Below, one piece after another: positions 16,584-25,515 of a DNA stretch of 64,000 nt. Origin of the DNA: a bacterium. Lineage in GTDB: Bacteria > UBA8248 > JACPRG01 > G963555815. The position numbers were made by a program, and so were the translations under genes. Every line of letters starts with the position of its first letter. Position 1 is the first letter of the stretch. The notes beneath the pieces are model-generated. The model was not told the DNA's origin and searched no databases. It saw only the letters and a list, made by a program, of their open reading frames with translations. The stretch lies in NCBI GenBank assembly GCA_965261595.1, contig CBDHDG010000005.1, forward strand, positions 704,452 to 768,451. The letters are read 5' to 3'.

Positions 16584-17987
16584 TCCCCCGCTCTAGGGTT
16601 TTGTTGGACACTCGATTGATCCATGATTCATGGAGAAAGGGGTGTCGCGATGAACGAACAAAAGCAAGAGGGGGCTTTGGCGGAGGGCGCCCGCAGGGCG
16701 AACGGAGCCAAGGCCCCAGGGCATCGCAGTGAGCGGGGTCGGTTCTCCTGCCAGCGCAAGCGGGAGGCGGTCCTGCGTCTTTTGCGGGGCGAGAGCCTGG
16801 AGACGCTCTGCCGCGAGTTGGGCACGACAGCGGCTCGGCTTTCCGCCTGGCGCGAGGCGTTCCTTCGCGGGGGCGAGGCGGCGCTCAAAGCCCGCCCGGC
16901 GGATGAGCGGGACGAGGAGAACGCCCGGCTCAAGGCCAAGGTGGGCGAACTCACGATGGAGGGCGAGGTCCTGCGGGAGAAGATCGACCGCCTGGAGGCC
17001 GGCCGCCCTTTAGCCGGCAGGAGGTGGAGGCGATGAGTCAGGCCCGCTTCACCTCCACGGGCAGAGCCTACGGCCTGAAGCGGGTGTGCGCCCTTTGGGG
17101 CTTGGCGCGCTCCACGGTCTACGCGCAACGGCGGCGAGAGGCGGTCCCCGTTCATGAACGCCCCACGCCCAATAAGCGCGGCCCTGTGGGCCCGTGCACC
17201 GATGCGGAACTCCTCGGCCACATCCGGCAGGTCCTGGAGGACTCTCCCTTCCATGGCGAGGGCTACCGCAAGGTGTGGGCGAGGCTGCGCTTCGCGGGCA
17301 TCCGCACCAGCAAGGAGCGGATGCGTCGCCTGATGCGGGAGGCGGGGCTTCAGGCCCCCCACCGGGTGGGCAAACCCCGAGGTCCCAAGGCCCACAACGG
17401 GACCATCCGCACCGAGCGGCCCGACCGAATGTGGGGCACGGACATGACGACGACGGTGACCACCGAGGAGGGGATGGCCTCGGTGTTCGTGGCGGTGGAT
17501 CACTGCTCGGTGGACTGCGTGGGGATCCATGCGGCCAAGAGCGGCAACCGCTTCGAGGCCCTGGAGCCGATCCGGCAGGGGGTCGCCGAGCGCTTCGCCG
17601 GCTTGGAGGCGGACGTCGCCGAGGGGCTTAAAGTTCGTCACGACCACGGCCCCGCCTATCTGTCCGATGACTTTCAGCGGGAGATCGCCTACCTGGGCAT
17701 GACCAGTTCGCCCAGCTTCGTGCGGGCGCCCGAGGGAAATGGCTACTGTGAGTGGTTTATCCGCATCTTGAAGGAGAATCTCCTGTGGGTGCGCTCTTTC
17801 GCCACCGTAGAGGAACTGCGGTGGGCGCTGCTTGAGTTCAAGAACCTGTATAACCATCATTGGATTCTCGAGGGCTACGGCTACCGAACGCCGGCCCAGG
17901 CAAGGCAGGAAAAACTCGCTCAAGTTGCGGAGGCCGCATGAGGTCGAATACCCTCACCCGAGTGTCCAATAACCCAGGGGCGGTCCA
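16584..17987 (+). mobile_element. IS3-family element copy 2 (1404 bp); orfA 16650-17036, orfB 17033-17941
   Basis: Near-identical to copy 1 and retains the WGTD catalytic Asp. No target duplication (TAAT vs GATG). Confidence 0.9.
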
Positions 17988-19911
17988 GATGAGCGTGTGG
18001 TGCCAGCCGGTGGAGACGATGGTTTTGAGGTCGTAGCGGATCTGCTGCCACCAGTTGACGAAGACGCCGGCACTCTTGAACTCGTCGAGCACGCCCAACG
18101 GCACGAGCTTGGCCTTGAGGGTGGTGAGCAGCTCGTGGCGGACCTCGGGCATCTTCTTGCCGCCGTTGCCCGCATGCTGGAGCTGGGCGAAGTCGTCCCT
18201 GGCAACCGCCCACCAGGATTCGAGGGCGTCGTGGTGCCGGGTGAGAGTGCCCAGCAGCGCCGGGGCCGCTTCGAGCGTGGCCTTGATGGCGGGCCTGGCG
18301 TCGATGAACTCGCGAAAGGCGAGGTAGGCGGGACGCTCGGGCTCGAAGAGTGAATCCGGGTTAACGCCGAACTTGGCGAAGTCGTCCGTGAGCGCAGCGA
18401 CCTCCACCTCCGGGATTCCGCCGATGAGGTGCGCCTGGACATCCTCCGGCTCGGGGTTGGGCGTGTTGTCCACGTAGCGGCGGATGTTGAGGTTGTAGTC
18501 GTGGGTGTCCACGATCTCGGACTTAGGCACGAGGCGCGAGTGCTTGGGCAGCTCGCGCTTGTGGGTGAAGACGAAATCGATCTTCTCGATGTCCTCGGGG
18601 CGAAGCCGGTTCTGATTCTTGCCCTCTGCGTATTCGCGATCGGCGTTGATGAAGAGGACCTTGTCCTTGAGTGCGTCGGGCTTGCTCTTGTTGCAGACCA
18701 GCACGCAGGCGGGGATGCCCGTGCCGTAGAAGAGGCCGGGCGGCAGGCTGACGATGGCCTCGATGCAGTCGTCATTGATGAAGAGCTCGCGGATGAGCTT
18801 TTCCTTACCACCACGGAACAGGACCCCGTGCGGCATGATCGTCGCCATCCGGCCGTTGGACTTGAGGCTGGCGAGCATGTGCTGCACGAACATGAGGTCC
18901 GCCTTCTTGCCGGACTCCGGGCACCACTCGCGGAAGCGACTGGTGAACTTCATGCCGGCGCGGCTGTAGTTCTGCGAGAATGGCGGGTTGGCGAGCACCC
19001 GGTCGAACTTGCGGATCTGGCCGTTGTCGAGCATGAGCGGGTCCTCCAGCGTGTCACCGTTCTCGATCGTGGATCGGGTGATATTGTGGAGGATCATGTT
19101 CATGATGCAGATAGGACCAGACCGTTCCGTTGGAGTCCTGGCCGTAGAGGGCGAGGTCGTCGGCGTTCTGGCCCTGCTCTTCCGCGTACTGGTGGGACTG
19201 AATGAGGAAGCCGCCGGAGCCGACCGTAGGGTCGTAGATGGTGTTGCCGGCCTCCGGCTGGGTGAGCTGGACGAGCAGGCGGACGACCTCGCCCGGGGTA
19301 TAGAACTCACCGCCCTTCTTGCCGGCGCTGTCGGCGAAGAACTTGATGAGGTACTCGTAGGCGGCGCCGAGCAGGTCGGGGAACTCGAAGTTGTCGTTGA
19401 CGAGGACGAACCCGGGCTGGCTGAAGTGGTCGAGCAGATCTTTCCACTTTTGGTCCGGGATCTTGGTCCTGCCCTTCACCGCGTTGAAGTCGATGTTGTT
19501 CTTCAGCACACCGGCGAGTGCATCGTTCTCGTCTTCGATGGCAGCGATGGCCTTATTGAGCATGTTGCCGATGTCGTGCTTTAGGTCCTTCAGGGCTGGC
19601 ACGAGATCGCCGTTATCGTCCTTCCAGGGCTCGTGCCAGCGGGCTCTGACAGGGACAAAGAAAGTCTCGCCGTAGGATGTCTTGTCTTCGAGCAACTCGG
19701 CGACGAGATCCGGCTGGTCTTTGAAGTGTGCGAAGGTCTTCTTGTGGAGCTGCTCGCGTTTGCGGTCGAACTCGTCGGAAAGCCGCTTCAGGAACAGCAT
19801 GCCGAAGATGAACTCCTTGAATTCCGAGGCGTCCATCTTGCCGCGCAGGATGTCGGCGGCCTTCAGGAGGAAGGACTCGAGCTGGGCGAGGGTGATTTTC
19901 CCTTGTTTCAT
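17988..19911 (-). pseudogene. hsdM: Type I restriction-modification M subunit, frameshifted near 19113 and 3'-truncated by IS3 copy 2
   Basis: [38 protein letters not shown]. No hsdS or hsdR in the window. Confidence 0.9.
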
Positions 19912-20362
19912 CTTCTGCCCCCTCTCACGCTTCCGCCTCTGCCTTCCCATTTTGCTTCTCGTACGCCTGCCGGACCAAGCCCATCACATATGGCTCTCTT
20001 CTGCATCCTATAGGAAATTTCCAGCGGCGCTCAGCAATTCATTCCTTCGTAATATACTGTATTATAACGATTTTCTTTCCTCCATCGCACCATCGCACCA
20101 GCCCGCTTGATCGGCACTGCCAAATTGCGAAAGCACAGCGCAACCGGATTTGCGCACTATCTGAGCTCGGCATGCCAGCGATTGACGCCCACGCCCCGGA
20201 ACGCACGATTCCGGCCCCGGCCGGGTAGGAGGGGTCGTTGCGAGCCATCTTGTTCGGTCACGCAGTGACGGCGGTCTGGCAGCGAAACCCAGCCCCCGAC
20301 ACTCCGCTCCGCTGCCCTCCGGGGCGCTCGCCCGCCTCCCGCCGGTCCGCGTCGGCTGAACC

Positions 20363-20552
20363 CTAGCGCACCGCGTCGCGCAGCGTCTTGCCGGCCTTGA
20401 ACGCGGGAGACTTCGAGACGACGATCTCGATGCTCTCGCCGGTCCTCGGGTGCCGCCCGGCGCGCGCCGGGCGGCACCTGACGGAGAACGTGCCGAACCG
20501 CGCGAGCGCGACCGTATCCCCCTTCGCAAGCGCGTCCTGAATCGCATCCAAC
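20363..20552 (-). pseudogene. HU/IHF-family DNA-binding protein, 5'-truncated by IS3
   Basis: FGTFSV..RPARAGRHPRTGESIEI...PAFKAGKTLRDAV; the N-terminal helices are missing. Confidence 0.8.
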
Positions 20553-21054
20553 TGGAGTTACCCCGTTTCAGTGGACAGTTTAGGGCTGTCGTCCCCAGCC
20601 CTGAGGTGGGCGACAGCCGGTGGACGTAAAGTCTTCTCCCGATCCGATAGATAGGGTGCCCCCGGGGGGTATGTCTTGATCTTTGGCTCGCTGCTCCGGG
20701 AAGCACCGGGGCCGGCTCGAGCCGGACGATGAGCGTTGCGCACTGCACGTGGCGTTTCCTTCGCCGCGGACCGCTCGTAGTCGTTGGGGCTGAGGTAACC
20801 CAGGGCCGAATGACGACGGCGTGGGTTGTACCAGCCTTCGATGAATTGGAAGACCGCCATACGCGCCTCGGCCTGGGTACGGAACGAACGCCGGTTGATG
20901 AGTTCGCACTCCAGCGTGGCGAAGAAGCTCTCGGCCATGGCGTTGTCAAAGCAGTCGCCGGCCGACCCGGTCGAGGGAACCACCCCCATCTCTCGGCACC
21001 GCTTGCCGAAGGCGAGCGAAGTGTACTGCGATCCCACTGACGCTCTCATATTTG

Positions 21055-22117
21055 TCAAGTGTTCGTTGAGGCGGTAAGGACCCGGTAGATTTCGCGGGCC
21101 ACGTAGCGCTTCAGACAACGCATCACCTCTCGCTTGGACAGTCCTTCCTGGGTACGCCGCGCGACGTAGGCTTTGGTTCGCTGGTCGGTCCGCATCCGGC
21201 AGATGACGACCATGTGCAGGGCTGAGTTGGCTTGGCGGTTCCCGCCGCGGTTGAGGCGGTAGCGTTGAGTCTGTCCGCTCGAGGCTCGGATCGGACAGGC
21301 GCCACACATCATCGCGAAGCTCGCCTCGGAGCGCAGCCGGTCCCAATTCTCCCCCGCGGCGACCATCAGTTCGCCAGCGTTCTCGATTCCAACGCCTTCG
21401 AGCTCGAGCAGATTGGGCGCGAGTCCCTCGACCAGCGGACCGATGAACCGGTCCAGCTCGGCGATCTCGTCGTTCAGGTCCAGGACCCTGCGAGCCAGGT
21501 ACTTCAGCGAGAGCTTGGTGGCGACCACGGGGTCGCGTTATCCGACGGTGTCCGGTCTCCAGGCCGCGCAGGTGCGAAGGCGCTGCATGCGAGTGAGGTT
21601 GCGGACCTGGTCGCGCACCTCCTCGGGTGCAGCGACGATCGTGTTGTGGAGCTGCTGCAGGGCCGCACGACGGCACTTCATCGCCGTCTTTCGGGTCGTG
21701 CGCAGCACCCGTAGGGCTTCCACGGCACCGGAACGGTCTTTGGCCAACAACCTGGACCCGGATTTTCGTTCGAGCCGCCTCAGCCGCCGCGATCGAGTCC
21801 AGGGCATCGCTCTTGCCCTTGGCTCTTCGCCCGGCCCGGTCCGGACCGGGCACCTCGAGCACAGGCACGCCGGACAGCGCCAAGTGCCGGGTAATGCCGG
21901 CCCCGTATAAGTCCCCGTGGATTCGACCCCTACGCGAAGCAACTCCCCGCGAGACCGGAACCAGCGAAGCATCGCCCGGTAGCCGGTCCGGGTGGTGGAG
22001 AACGATTCGGTGCCGAGTACCGCTGCCATCGAGGTCCACGATGGCAGCGGTGTGCAGGTCCTGGTGGGTATCGACGCCCCCGATGATCTGGGCGCCCTCA
22101 GCGATCGTGTTCGCCAT
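21055..22117 (-). pseudogene. IS110 recombinase (DEDD RuvC-like + Tnp domain) with several frameshifts and a premature stop at 21538
   Basis: GVDTH, GVESTG.YG, KSDALD, ASSG, RLNRGGNRQANSALH, LKRYVARE. Confidence 0.85.
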
Positions 22118-22149
22118 CTCCGCCTCCTGTGTCTATGGTGAGTGAAGGG

Positions 22150-22400
22150 GATGGAACCGAACTCAGCCGATCTTGGACACGACAGGGAAGGGACGCCTTG
22201 GGCCAGGCTCTCATCAGGTCACGATGTCGGTCGAGGTCGGAACCTCAACCGGTTGCCCCCGGGTGGCCGACAAGTCAAGAGAATGACACCACGGTCAATC
22301 AGAGTGTGGGTCAAGCCACCCTGGGGCGGCCGGCCCTACAAGCCTAAATGCGTTACTCGCGGTACGGGTCAGACCACCTCAGGTAACCGGCCCTCACATA
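22150..22400 (-). ncRNA. Putative IS110 bridge RNA with target-binding and donor-binding loops
   Basis: Stem GGGTGGC/GCCACCC (22261-22321) encloses CACTCTGA and TTCTCTTG, which match the insertion-site flanks. A second stem (~22157-22240) encloses ATGAGAGC and TCCCTG, which match the element's own ends. Confidence 0.7.
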
Positions 22401-23178
22401 CTCACTGTCGGAGTGATGCACGACCCCGTCGGGGCGGCGCTGTCCCAACGCCATGTTCAGCGCCCCGAGCACCAGTTCGGTGCGAAGATGGTGGGTCATG
22501 GACCATCCCACCACCCGGCGGCTGAACACGTCGAGCACGATGGCCAGGTACACGAACCCCGTCCAGGTCGGCACGTAGGTCACGTCGGCCACCCAAAGCC
22601 GATCCGGCCCATCGGCCTGGAACTGGCGATCGACCCGGTCCGGGACCACACAATGGCTCTGGTCCACGCGCGTAGTGCGCGTGCCTCGTCGTGCTTCGCA
22701 CGATTGGAACGCCCACGGCTTCGCCACGTGCAGTACCCGCTGGAGGAGACAGACAGCACCCGGCACCGAGCCGGTCTCCCGTGCGAACCAGACCGCGGCT
22801 TTTTTAGGATCTCCCGCTCTTCGCGAAGCTGACGGACCTCTCGACGAAGCCGCCGTAGCTCCTCGAGGTCTGAGCTTGTCAGACCATCCTTACGACGGCC
22901 CTCGTCGCGGTCGGCCTGGCGCACCCAGTTGCGAATCGCCGAAGCGGAACACTCGGACTCACGGGCCAGCTCCCCGGGCGTACGGCCCGAGCGAACCAGC
23001 TCAACCATCTGGCGCCGGTATTCCGGCGCGTAGGGTGAATGAGTTTTCGGCATCTGAACACCTCCTCCGCACAGTCTCAAGGTGTCCACAAAAACGGGTC
23101 AACTCCATCCGAAAGCGTTGCCCGGCGAACCCCCGGAATCTCTCCCGCCTCCGCGCGGATGCGATCCCGCTCCATCCG

Positions 23179-25515
23179 TCAGGGCCGGGGTCCGTCCGCC
23201 GGAGCGGCCTGGTCTTGGACCCTGGCACCAAAAAGCAGGCGGGCGAGCGCCGGCAGCAGCAGAACCGCGCCGGCCAGGTTAGCGAGGAACATGAAGGTCA
23301 GCAGGATCCCCATGTCGGCCTGGAACTGCAGGTCGGAGAAAATCCAGGTCGAAACGCCCAAGGCCAGCGTCAGTCCGGTCACCAGCACCGCGCTGCCGGT
23401 CGTCGCCATGGCCTGCCGGAAGGCCTCGACGGTCTCCGCGCCGTCTTCCAGCGCCCGCTTCATACGGTTGAAGATGTAAATGCCGTAGTCGACCCCGATG
23501 CCGACGCCGAGCGCGGCCACCGGCAGCGTCGAGACCTTCAGCCCGATCTTCAGAAGCGCCATCAGCGCGAACGCCAGCACGGACACCAGCGCCAGCGGCA
23601 GCACCACGCAGAGCGTGCCCCGGAGTGACCGGAAGGCCAGCAGACACAACGCGATCACGGCGCAATAGACCCAGACCAGCATGTCGACTTGGGTGTCGCG
23701 GACGAGCGCGTTGGTCGCCGCCATGACGCCGAGATTACCGGCGGCCAGCCCGAAGCGAAGCCCCCCGCTCTCGTGACGGGCCGCGTAGGCCCTGACCACG
23801 GCGACCACCCGGTCGATGGTCTCGGCGCGGTGGTCGTCGGTGAAGATCAACACCGGCATCACCGAGCAGTCGGCGTTCAGCAGACCCGTGTCGGTCTGGA
23901 TCGGGGCGACCGACTGGACCAGCGTCTTCGTATTGCGCGGCAGGGTTCGCCATTTGGGGTGCCCTTCGTTGAAGCTGGCGTTGAGCCTGCGCGAGACCTG
24001 TGGCAGCGAGATCGTGGACCGCACACCGGGCACCTGGCTCATCCGAAAGGCGAAATCGTCCACCCGGTCCAGGAACGCGAAGTCGACGCAGGCGTTCGCC
24101 TTCGTCTCCACGATCACCGTCAGCAAGTCGACGCCGATCGCGAAGCGCTCCGTGATGACGGCGCTGTCGCGGTTGTAGCGGGAATCCGGGCGCAGCTCCG
24201 GCACGCCTGCGTGGACGTCGCCGATCACGTGGCCGCGGGCGACGAACAGCCCGCCGCCCGCGACGATGAGCGCCAGGAGGAGCATCGCCGCGGCCACCCG
24301 CCCGGACGCCAGCCGCGAGAGCCGGCGCCAGAGGGGCCGCCTTGCCTCGGCGGCCGCCCGGATGCGCCGCCGGTAATTCGCGGCGGGGGGCACGTAGGAC
24401 ATCAGCACCGGCAACAACACAAGATTGGTGAAGAGGATCGCGGCCACGCCCAGGCTCATGGTCACCGCCAGGTCCTGGATGATCTGCACGTCGATGAGCA
24501 GGATCATGAGAAAGCCGACGCAGTCGCTCGCCAGCGCCGCCGTCCCAGGCGTGGCGAGTTGAAGGAAGGCGTCGCGCGCCGCCTCCTCCTTCTTTTCCCC
24601 ATCCCGGATCGCGGCCCCCGAGGCGTTCACGACCTGCAACCCGTGGGAGACGCCAATCGCGAACACGAGAAAGGGCGCCAGGATCGACATGGGGTCGATG
24701 CCGAAACCGAGCAGTGCCAGCAGCCCCAGCGTCCAGACCACGGCCAGCGCCGAACACCACAGCAGCAGGACCGTGTACCGGACCGAATGGATGAAGACGT
24801 AAACCAGCAGCGCCGACAGCAGGAAGGCAACGGCGAAAAAAATGAGCACGTCCGTCGCGCCGTCGGCCACGTCGCCGATCGCCTTCGCAAAGCCGATGAT
24901 GTGGATCTCCACCGACTCGTTGGTGAAGGGCTCGCGCAGCCTGTCTTCCAGCAGGCGGGCAACCTTGAGATAGTCCAGCCGTTTCCCCGTCCGCGGATCG
25001 ATCTCGACCAGCTCCGCGCTCACCATCGCGGCTGACAGATCGTTGGCCACGAGTCTGCCCACAATCCCGGCCTTGAGCACGTTGGCGCGGACCCGGGCCA
25101 GGTCCGCGGCGCTGCCCCGGTAATCGGCCGGCACGACGTTTCCGCCGGCCAGCCCGCCCTCCACGATCTCGAGGAAGCGGACGTTGGGCGTAAACAGCGA
25201 GCGGACCGAGGCCCTGTTCACGCCGGGCAGGAAGAACACGGCGTCGGTCGCGGCCTTGAGCGTCTCCATGAAGGAGGTGGTGAAGATGTCGCCCGAACGC
25301 GCGCGAACCGCGATCAGTAGGCGATTGGCTCCGCCGAACTCGGCTTGATGTTTCCTGAAGATCTGCATGAAGGGGTGGCGCCGGGGCAGGTGCTTCCCGA
25401 AGCTGGTATCGACCCCGAGCCTGGTGGCCGACAGGCCCAGCGCCAGGCTCGCCAGCAGAAAAGCCGCGAGCACGAACCGCCGGTGGGCGAAGATCCAGTC
25501 ACCGAGCCGGTTCAT
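23179..25515 (-). CDS. RND/MMPL-family transporter
   Basis: Two MMPL repeats, AIGVSHG and GVGIGVDYGIY motifs; typical partner of DUF1302/DUF1329. Confidence 0.9.
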   Translation of the reverse strand: MNRLGDWIFAHRRFVLAAFLLASLALGLSATRLGVDTSFGKHLPRRHPFMQIFRKHQAEFGGANRLLIAVRARSGDIFTTSFMETLKAATDAVFFLPGVNRASVRSLFTPNVRFLEIVEGGLAGGNVVPADYRGSAADLARVRANVLKAGIVGRLVANDLSAAMVSAELVEIDPRTGKRLDYLKVARLLEDRLREPFTNESVEIHIIGFAKAIGDVADGATDVLIFFAVAFLLSALLVYVFIHSVRYTVLLLWCSALAVVWTLGLLALLGFGIDPMSILAPFLVFAIGVSHGLQVVNASGAAIRDGEKKEEAARDAFLQLATPGTAALASDCVGFLMILLIDVQIIQDLAVTMSLGVAAILFTNLVLLPVLMSYVPPAANYRRRIRAAAEARRPLWRRLSRLASGRVAAAMLLLALIVAGGGLFVARGHVIGDVHAGVPELRPDSRYNRDSAVITERFAIGVDLLTVIVETKANACVDFAFLDRVDDFAFRMSQVPGVRSTISLPQVSRRLNASFNEGHPKWRTLPRNTKTLVQSVAPIQTDTGLLNADCSVMPVLIFTDDHRAETIDRVVAVVRAYAARHESGGLRFGLAAGNLGVMAATNALVRDTQVDMLVWVYCAVIALCLLAFRSLRGTLCVVLPLALVSVLAFALMALLKIGLKVSTLPVAALGVGIGVDYGIYIFNRMKRALEDGAETVEAFRQAMATTGSAVLVTGLTLALGVSTWIFSDLQFQADMGILLTFMFLANLAGAVLLLPALARLLFGARVQDQAAPADGPRP

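Follow-up and report, generated by a model that had tools for sequence, protein, structure and literature searches.

The stretch analysed here, 64,000 nucleotides (nt) of contig CBDHDG010000005.1 (hereafter the window), carries an IS3-family insertion sequence (IS) that is interrupted by what is very probably an RNA-guided insertion sequence of the IS110 family, now decayed, from a clade sister to ISEc21 and ISMch6. The anatomy of this element, the insertion of its relatives at the same codon of many independent rve-type transposase genes, and the covariation of its guide segments with DNA and of its RNA structure can be seen directly in the sequences compared. The first-pass annotation, made from the letters of the window, had proposed an IS110 element whose bridge RNA is directed at the catalytic motif of IS3 transposases. 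That principle is right, but it had already been published, with experiments, for ISEc21 (PMC11187229).

Read on the minus strand, as are all sequences given below, the insert starts at 22406 with AGTGAGTATG and ends at 21039 with ATGAGAGCGTC. The left flank, CAT CAC TCC GAC (H-H-S-D), has its last base at 22407 and the right flank begins at 21038 with AGTGGGATCGCAGTAC, the IS110 element splitting orfB of its host directly after the Asp codon of H-H-S-D. This is the site reported for the ISEc21 group, the second D of IS3 transposases, with the insert lying between GAC and the next codon. The host element extends from about 23107 to 20553 on the minus strand; Pfam recognizes HTH_Tnp_1 in its orfA and rve and rve_3 in its orfB, and NCBIfam transpos_IS3 matches as well. 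The first-pass placement of the insert in IS3 orfB was reproduced, and the insert does lie inside the H-S-D-x-G-S-Q-Y motif that it was said to split; the cut itself had to be redrawn, the crossover falling directly after GAC and interrupting the frame between D and x. About 225 nt around the orfA/orfB overlap of the host (approximately 22700-22790) are gone in comparison with other copies, as deduced from the spacing of BLAST matches. This defect of the host copy, already there or acquired later, is independent of the IS110 insertion.

Pfam profiles recognized Transposase_20 (PF02371) in the insert with 54.7 bits and DEDD_Tnp_IS110 (PF01548) with 24.1 bits, the latter below its cut-off of 29 because the transposase frame is broken. 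An intact ortholog (L045) scored 172.1 bits against a cut-off of 140 with NF033542, 'IS110 family RNA-guided transposase'. The order of domains, an N-terminal DEDD/RuvC-like PF01548 followed by PF02371, is that of the IS110 family. According to the distinction between IS110-type and IS1111-type elements given in PMC11187229, the element is of the IS110 type: it has neither terminal inverted repeats nor a target duplication, and a long non-coding region precedes the gene (289 nt at the left end, compared with 16 nt past the stop codon at the right). Duplicated target bases were likewise absent from the junctions of its relatives. The 20-mer at the right end (21039-21058) is conserved in 41 related loci, and its TTGACA would stand 17 nt from a GAGTAT hexamer of the left end when both ends abut. 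In a tree of 42 transposases, the clade of the window and the ISEc21-like/ISMch6 sequences formed one group as sister clades (support 99/95), with a clade carrying the right end ATAGGAGC outside.

The non-coding left end encodes a putative bridge RNA or seekRNA. A consensus built from 20 left ends (alignment A2) comprises a target-binding loop, a hairpin and a donor-binding loop, the two-internal-loop structure by which such RNAs are recognized. Overall, 95.3% of cells were paired, compared with 33-46% in controls with slid partners, and double-sided changes were seen in 13 pairs, shuffles giving 6.0 ± 1.5 (0/500), with 8/13 pairs with changes on both sides in helix 1, the basal stem. In both loops the 5′ side has the sense of the top strand and the 3′ side is complementary to it, so that the loop order and strand sense that had been likened to IS621, target-binding loop first and donor-binding loop second, agree with the description of Durrant et al. 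(PMC11208160). The four loop segments named in the first-pass annotation, CACTCTGA (22306-22299), TTCTCTTG (22283-22276), ATGAGAGC (22214-22207) and TCCCTG (22188-22183), stand at the coordinates first given for them and correspond to the left target guide (LTG), the right target guide (RTG), the left donor guide (LDG) and the right donor guide (RDG). Across relatives, guides were recovered by regular expressions.

We then compared each guide with the DNA that it should recognize. In the window, the LTG matches the left target (LT) at 7/9 positions exactly and at 9/9 with two U:G pairs, the 9-mer ending exactly at the crossover. Across 36 clusters (44 loci), LTGs fitted their own left targets better than those of other elements (7.08 compared with 5.86 of 9), a difference reached in 0/20000 permutations; locus L116, mis-called by the left-end pattern, was retained, which makes the test conservative. 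Guide and flank had changed together in retargeted members: AATACTGAC goes with AAT ACC GAC, CACACTGAT with CAC ACC GAT, CACTCAGAT with CAT TCA GAC, and ACGTGTGAT with ACG TGG GAT in an IS30 gene. Three loci of a sister clade also had 9/9 LTG matches. As for the donor, the RDG pairs with CAGTGAGT at 6/8 positions in the window, with one internal mismatch that is confined to this copy and one copy in genome G006, and at 7/8 in the intact G006 copy. In each of 14 distinct combinations the RDG pairs with the first bases of its element, and RDGs and the element's own left ends (RD) covary (own 6.14, other 5.14 of 8; 0/20000 permutations), with compensatory changes. The LDG and the right end share the same 8-mer within each of four clades, namely ATGAGAGC, ATAGGAGC, AGAAGGGC and AGGAGAGC, and the donor guides thus both match and covary with the ends of the element. 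Taken together, the family-wide permutation tests and the sister-clade control indicate that the matches exceed chance. The proposal that the loop segments match and covary with target and donor accordingly holds for the LTG, the RDG and, clade by clade, the LDG; for the RTG the signal is weak, as detailed below.

The two U:G pairs of the window LTG, CACUCUGAU on CAC TCC GAC, both fall on third codon positions (TCY and GAY), and most relatives have U at both of these positions. This is compatible with the wobble-tolerant recognition suggested earlier, with a guide U opposite the third position of each codon, and we infer that the enzyme accepts such U:G pairs.

Next, we asked where relatives of the element are inserted. 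Three of 61 genomes (60 relatives and the source genome) gave a match, the source genome included; 13 related loci came from a set with one genome for each species and 145 from metagenomes, the best 80 of the latter being kept. In the clade with the right end TTGACAAACATGAGAGCGTC, right flanks of at least 15 nt were available for 41 loci (31 clusters), and 25/31 clusters begin with x-G-x-Q-Y/F, in frame after GTC. In contrast, the motif was found in 0/26 clusters (28 loci) of the control sister clade, whose right end is ATAGGAGCATC. Left flanks end in [H/N]-[S/T]-D in 39/44 loci and 28/31 clusters. Homologues are enriched for flanks coding for HSDxGSQ-type motifs, the enrichment that the first-pass annotation had proposed to look for. 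Of seven left flanks tested with Pfam, six were rve domains, all stopping at profile position 73/102, and the seventh belonged to an IS30-family transposase that is split between positions 196 and 197 of the NCBIfam profile. An H-S-D left junction was found in 5/5 further copies examined on Rhodococcus and Pandoraea plasmids, and in single copies on Klebsiella and Pseudarthrobacter plasmids. In genome G006, one copy is intact and several are broken, three left junctions being at the same codon in IS3 copies. The source genome has a second copy (contig C6, L002) with the identical left junction in a diverged IS3 copy, which ends after 218 nt at another element. Between the window and this copy the IS110 part shows 3/218 mismatches and the IS3 part 36/636 (Fisher p = 0.0076); the IS110 parts being closer than their flanks speaks for separate insertions.

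Some insertions of relatives deserve a separate description. In metagenome loci L078 and L079, with the LTG ACGTGTGAT, an IS30-family transposase is split between L-T-W-D and Q-G-H-E, at the equivalent catalytic Asp. L075, also from a metagenome, lies in a tyrosine-recombinase gene between F-Y-A-Y and R-G-K-G-G-K; the CGG GGC of its right target is similar to the Arg-Gly codons of the usual IS3 site and only the left guide differs. In L047 and L048 the left flank (about 2190-2213 of the locus) is not an HSD site and lies at the end of an IS3 orfA-like frame; it holds CATGAGAGCG, which repeats 10 nt of the right end of the element itself. These two loci may represent insertion at a donor-like half-site, and a rearrangement between copies is also possible, since L048 keeps an IS3 right flank. 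An ISEc21-group relative on an IncFII plasmid of Klebsiella pneumoniae (L140) interrupts an IS3-type gene between I-H-H-S-D and Q-G-S-Q-Y. Protein matches were found in 1082 Klebsiella plasmid records, from which this type of element appears common on enterobacterial plasmids. Beside the 218-nt stump on contig C6 (L002, 1-1500), a gene resembles, by eye, the IstB-type ATPase of an IS21-family element.

Several results weigh against the reading of the insert as a precisely targeted, RNA-guided element. The first concerns the empty site. The source genome has 16 uninterrupted close IS3 copies, with GAC AGG GGA TCG (7), GAC CAG GGC TCG (7) or GAC CGG GGA ACG (2), and the occupied site is the AGG-type empty site to which the element and one extra T have been added. 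A T-form empty site occurred in 0/46 uninterrupted HHxD-x-G-x-QY sites of the source genome (one pattern covering both of its IS3 families, 31 sites being in the second), and the occupied site is 1 nt longer than any of them. The caveat of the first-pass annotation, a rebuilt empty site 1 nt too long, was therefore borne out against the 16 copies as well as the 46 sites. Second, the RTG pairs with CAGTGGGA at 7/8 positions and equally well, and contiguously, with the empty-site sequence CAGGGGAT, but its covariation with right targets (RT) is weak: own 4.50, other 4.26 of 8, reached in 677/20000 permutations with Watson-Crick pairs and 1099/20000 with wobble (24 combinations, 32 loci, omitting L085, L106 and L119, in which the RTG pattern matched elsewhere or the left end was truncated). 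The RTG hardly varies, and it typically matches just 4-7 of 8 right-target positions. Third, the LDG 8-mer stops 3 nt short of the crossover, the right end continuing with GTC, and target (GA[C/T] followed by NNN) and donor (GTC followed by AGT) have no core dinucleotide in common of the kind seen in IS621. Fourth, six of the 31 right-flank clusters do not have the motif: the window (shifted by the extra base), the truncated G006 copy, L047, L060 in an AcrB-family gene, L075 with R-G-K-G-G-K, and L078/79 with Q-G-H-E; classed otherwise, they are the window, the truncated copy, two sites that are rearranged or of another kind, a tyrosine-recombinase gene and an IS30-family gene. Finally, single-sequence folds of two left ends were not exceptional (z = -1.48 and -2.21), and an Rfam scan of 20000-23500 (E ≤ 1) matched no family other than a chance miRNA match (E = 0.49). 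Metatranscriptome contigs show that a relative's loop region is present in one RNA library, which is not transcription, and expression of the window copy is unsupported by them.

Further observations were made on these same subjects. One metatranscriptome contig, from another sample, joins 21035 to 22405, the form of an empty site, and another (X19, 153 nt) covers 22206-22321 in a looped-back form resembling an assembly cycle; among the sequencing runs searched, none contained half or more of the sampled words. Other genomic matches to TC[CG]GACAGTGG were considered as the source of the extra T, and all five proved to be unrelated sequence. The truncated G006 copy (L011, minus strand) also has GTC followed by AGTGG at its right junction, comparable to window 21036-21038, and yields no explanation of the extra T. 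As a shared core, the registers AG, CA, TG, [A/T]C and C[C/A] were tried by hand, and none was common to target and donor in all copies. The source genome is very rich in IS elements, with two IS3 families of about 18 and at least 31 copies, and the IS110 element occupies just two further sites. Regarding the claim that the element parasitizes and inactivates IS3 transposons, orfB is indeed split at a codon-constrained target, but inactivation is marginal here, the window copy being a pseudogene and 46 uninterrupted sites being kept.

Compared with the intact G006 gene, the transposase gene of the window copy contains insertions of 1 nt near 22025, 2 nt (AC) near 21907 and 4 nt (TTGT) near 21749, as well as a TAA at 21540-21538 where G006 has TAC. 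Judged by these three frameshifting insertions and the stop codon, it is a pseudogene and the copy is dead. It could be argued that the extra junction base and the frameshifts are assembly errors, in a copy that is really intact and precisely inserted, given that the genome, full of repeats, comes in 7 contigs as in long-read assemblies, and that the junction lies at a G run. We consider this distinctly unlikely: the extra base is a T and not a lengthened homopolymer, and the lesions in the gene (AC, TTGT and the change of TAC to TAA) are not errors of homopolymer length either. It is very unlikely, in turn, that the copy still moves non-autonomously with the help of an intact transposase acting in trans from elsewhere in the cell. 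Neither end and none of the four guide segments has been lost, but an intact gene was not found in the source genome (96.7% complete, assembly not closed), which yielded only the window copy, the 218-nt stump and a 114-nt fragment of 82% identity; in addition, one position of the RDG does not match the left end, and compared with the C6 and G006 copies the RTG has one further change. With three frameshifts, the stop codon and this one mismatch between RDG and left end, the copy cannot act on its own.

A more general objection would be that the recombinase protein alone reads the target and that the loop matches are a by-product of shared ancestry. The near constancy of the RTG over varying right targets is what such a view would expect, and so is the main LTG being identical in most members, where much of the match reflects conservation and not covariation. 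However, retargeted members changed LTG and flank together, three sister-clade loci match at 9/9, RDG and left end show compensatory changes, and a reprogrammed ISEc21 RNA redirected insertion (PMC11187229), all of which makes this objection most improbable. Barely credible is a single chance insertion, later copied as an IS3::IS110 composite without target specificity: the identical left junction of the two source-genome copies and the many IS3 copies able to spread a nested insert would permit it, but the IS3 flanks are more diverged than the IS110 part, the same codon was hit in clearly different rve-type transposases of different hosts, and ISEc21 has been shown by experiment to move into such a target (PMC11187229).

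Under the preferred reading of the insert as a decayed RNA-guided IS110-family element, elements of the clade would excise as a circle, in which the TTGACA of the right end and the GAGTAT of the left end would form a promoter from which the transposase gene and the RNA of the left end are transcribed. This RNA would fold into two internal loops, the second recognizing the element's own right and left ends through AUGAGAGC and UUCNCUG. The DEDD/serine recombinase would then exchange strands directly after the Asp codon, without target duplication, leaving IS3 orfB split, and a U in the guide facing third codon positions would accept both pyrimidines. Expression of the RNA, formation of the RNA-protein complex and catalysis are here expected by analogy with the published ISEc21 and IS621 experiments. 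Every left junction has the AGT or TGT of the donor, and at right junctions the codon of the target itself is kept, in agreement with the insertion of ISEc21 without duplication (PMC11187229). This one-sided pattern would fit an exchange at a single bond. Two preprints propose copy-out and top-strand-only insertion for IS110 elements.

Many members of the clade, as well as ISMch6, carry two tandem CTGACCC-N-(9 nt)-CGAC modules in the left-end RNA; the window copy does not have a second one and retains a degenerate remnant (Table 1). An upstream LTG-like module was present in L049, L050, L058, L059, L063-L072, L076, L077, L082-L084, L087-L089, L099, L106 and L139, and L074 has three modules, AACACTGAT, AACAGCGAT and AACTCTGAT. 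The upstream 9-mer is mostly CACAGCGAT (CAC AGC GAU) and the main one mostly CACTCTGAT (CAC UCU GAU). Both spell His-Ser-Asp, using the two unrelated serine codon families, AGY upstream and TCN at the main position; the ISEc21-like E. coli plasmid element has CACAGCGAT at its main position. When insertion sites were compared, module 1 fitted better in 3/3 insertions at AGY serine codons (L050, L070 and L071), and module 2 in 13/13 TCN sites of two-module elements. L069 and L070, which differ at 3 positions in the first 300 nt, lie at TCC and AGT sites, respectively. A single 3′ strand can serve as partner for the strand 5′ of either module: in the alternative helix 94.5% of cells are paired, compared with 24-59% in slid controls, and seven cells have changed on both sides (0/500 shuffles). 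Duplex energies were -29.7 kcal/mol for own pairs, -26.2 for strands of other elements and -15 for shuffled ones.

On this basis one RNA might fold into either of two target-binding loops with a common right guide and so cover codon degeneracy beyond wobble, a possibility that we put forward tentatively and on balance doubt. Speaking against it, the AGY cases are just three, module 2 still matches these sites at 6-7 of 9 positions, the modules are paralogues whose likeness may be inherited, and 32/500 shuffles reach the observed count of pairs changed on both sides. Five further plasmid copies from Rhodococcus and Pandoraea, sought as AGY-serine targets, were all single-module elements at TCN sites. 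We found no description of tandem guide modules in the literature searched, and the feature may be new; supplementary figures in PMC11187229, on the fold of the long RNA and on the region of ISMch6, may bear on the point. If the tandem modules were functional, they would offer a natural route for one bridge RNA to recognize two synonymous target sequences.

Table 1. Coordinates of the IS110-family element, its RNA features and its IS3 host in the window.
Feature	Position	Strand	Basis
IS110-family element, decayed copy, 1368 bp	21039..22406	minus	Junctions in sequence; 91% nt identity to intact G006 copy
Host IS3 5′ part: left inverted repeat (IRL), orfA, orfB to second catalytic Asp	22407..23107	minus	Pfam HTH_Tnp_1, rve; NCBIfam transpos_IS3 positions 183-281
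Host IS3 3′ part: orfB remainder and right inverted repeat (IRR)	20553..21038	minus	Pfam rve_3 / rve_2; BLAST to other copies
IS110 transposase pseudogene	21055..22117	minus	tblastn/blastn against intact G006 copy; open reading frames; Pfam
Right end: TTGACA (-35-like) 21058-21053, ATGAGAGC 21049-21042, GTC 21041-21039	21039..21058	minus	Sequence
GAGTAT, -10-like hexamer of putative circle-junction promoter	22398..22403	minus	Sequence only, inferred
Non-coding left end encoding putative bridge/seek RNA	22118..22406	minus	Alignment A2, consensus structure, covariation
Module 1 remnant TCTGACCC G TACCGCGAG, guide-like 9-mer degenerate	22356..22373	minus	Aligned with intact CACAGCGAT modules of relatives
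Basal stem 5′ strand, target-binding loop	22314..22334	minus	Pairs with 22249-22271
LTG CACTCTGAT	22298..22306	minus	Same sense as left target CACTCCGAC
RTG TTCTCTTG	22276..22283	minus	7/8 with CAGGGGAT or CAGTGGGA
Basal stem 3′ strand, target-binding loop	22249..22271	minus	Consensus structure, covariation
LDG ATGAGAGCC	22206..22214	minus	8-mer identical to right end 21049-21042
RDG CTTCCCTG	22183..22190	minus	Pairs with C+AGTGAGT 6/8

Two neighbouring regions of the window were inspected by eye. Abutting the right end of the IS3 element, an open reading frame of 62 amino acids (20363-20551, minus strand) resembles the C-terminal part of an HU/IHF-type DNA-binding protein, and IS3 may have inserted into that gene. 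Farther on (17838-19950, minus strand), two overlapping reading frames resemble a type I restriction-modification methyltransferase with an NPPF motif, split by a frameshift near 19054-19310.

For an RNA-guided IS, the codon-constrained catalytic motif of other transposons represents a 'safe harbour' that is multi-copy, mobile and dispensable. The present analysis adds breadth, a large clade beyond ISEc21 using the same site; its members were found on metagenome contigs, in metagenome-assembled genomes (MAGs) and isolates belonging mostly, where labelled, to Actinomycetota, and on Klebsiella, Pandoraea and Rhodococcus plasmids. By natural retargeting, members have also come to lie at the corresponding Asp of an IS30-family transposase and at the R-G-K-G-G-K box of a tyrosine recombinase. 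Exchange at one fixed bond and without a shared core, as seen in more than 30 natural junctions, also bears on the debate between Holliday-junction and top-strand-only models to which the two preprints belong.

Among known systems, one further comparison is with a DEDD-transposase IS that likewise has a habitual target inside another mobile element. Its target, however, is a non-coding inverted repeat and not a codon-constrained catalytic motif, and in IS1111-type elements the guide region lies downstream of the gene (PMC11187229). IS621 (Durrant et al. 2024, Nature, PMC11208160) resembles the window clade in having an RNA, encoded in the left end, with two internal loops, target-binding and then donor-binding, whose 3′ guide side forms 4-7 nt of pairing with the top strand. 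It differs in targeting repetitive extragenic palindromic (REP) elements and in needing a CT core, common to target and donor, that enters into all four pairings, whereas the window clade has no shared dinucleotide, its LDG match ends 3 nt before the crossover and no Rfam model matched its RNA. The term 'IS3' has 0 occurrences in the main text of PMC11208160.

The closest comparison is with ISEc21 (Siddiquee et al. 2024, Nat Commun, PMC11187229), which targets the second D of IS3 transposases. Abutted ISEc21 ends form a junction promoter, and the RNA from its non-coding region is required and can be reprogrammed; ISMch6 is described as a naturally redirected relative with three altered bases (PMC11187229). 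At just 55-57% amino acid identity, and under the 95% amino acid isoform rule quoted in PMC2516522, the element of the window clade is to be regarded as a different IS from both. The donor guide and right end are also different, AGAAGGGC in ISEc21 and ISMch6 and ATGAGAGC in the window clade; the labelled hosts of the window's close relatives are mostly Actinomycetota MAGs and isolates, and the window copy is a pseudogene. In architecture, by contrast, the likeness is close. In an E. coli plasmid element, taken as ISEc21-like, and in the annotated ISMch6, as in the window clade, the LTG is a 9-mer reaching up to the crossover, GTC follows the LDG 8-mer at the right end, and the flank is IS3 sequence. 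As reported for ISEc21 and ISMch6, the window clade would draw a guide RNA from the upstream non-coding region, insert without target duplication and use a promoter formed by abutted ends, with the bottom-strand match lying 5′ of the top-strand match.

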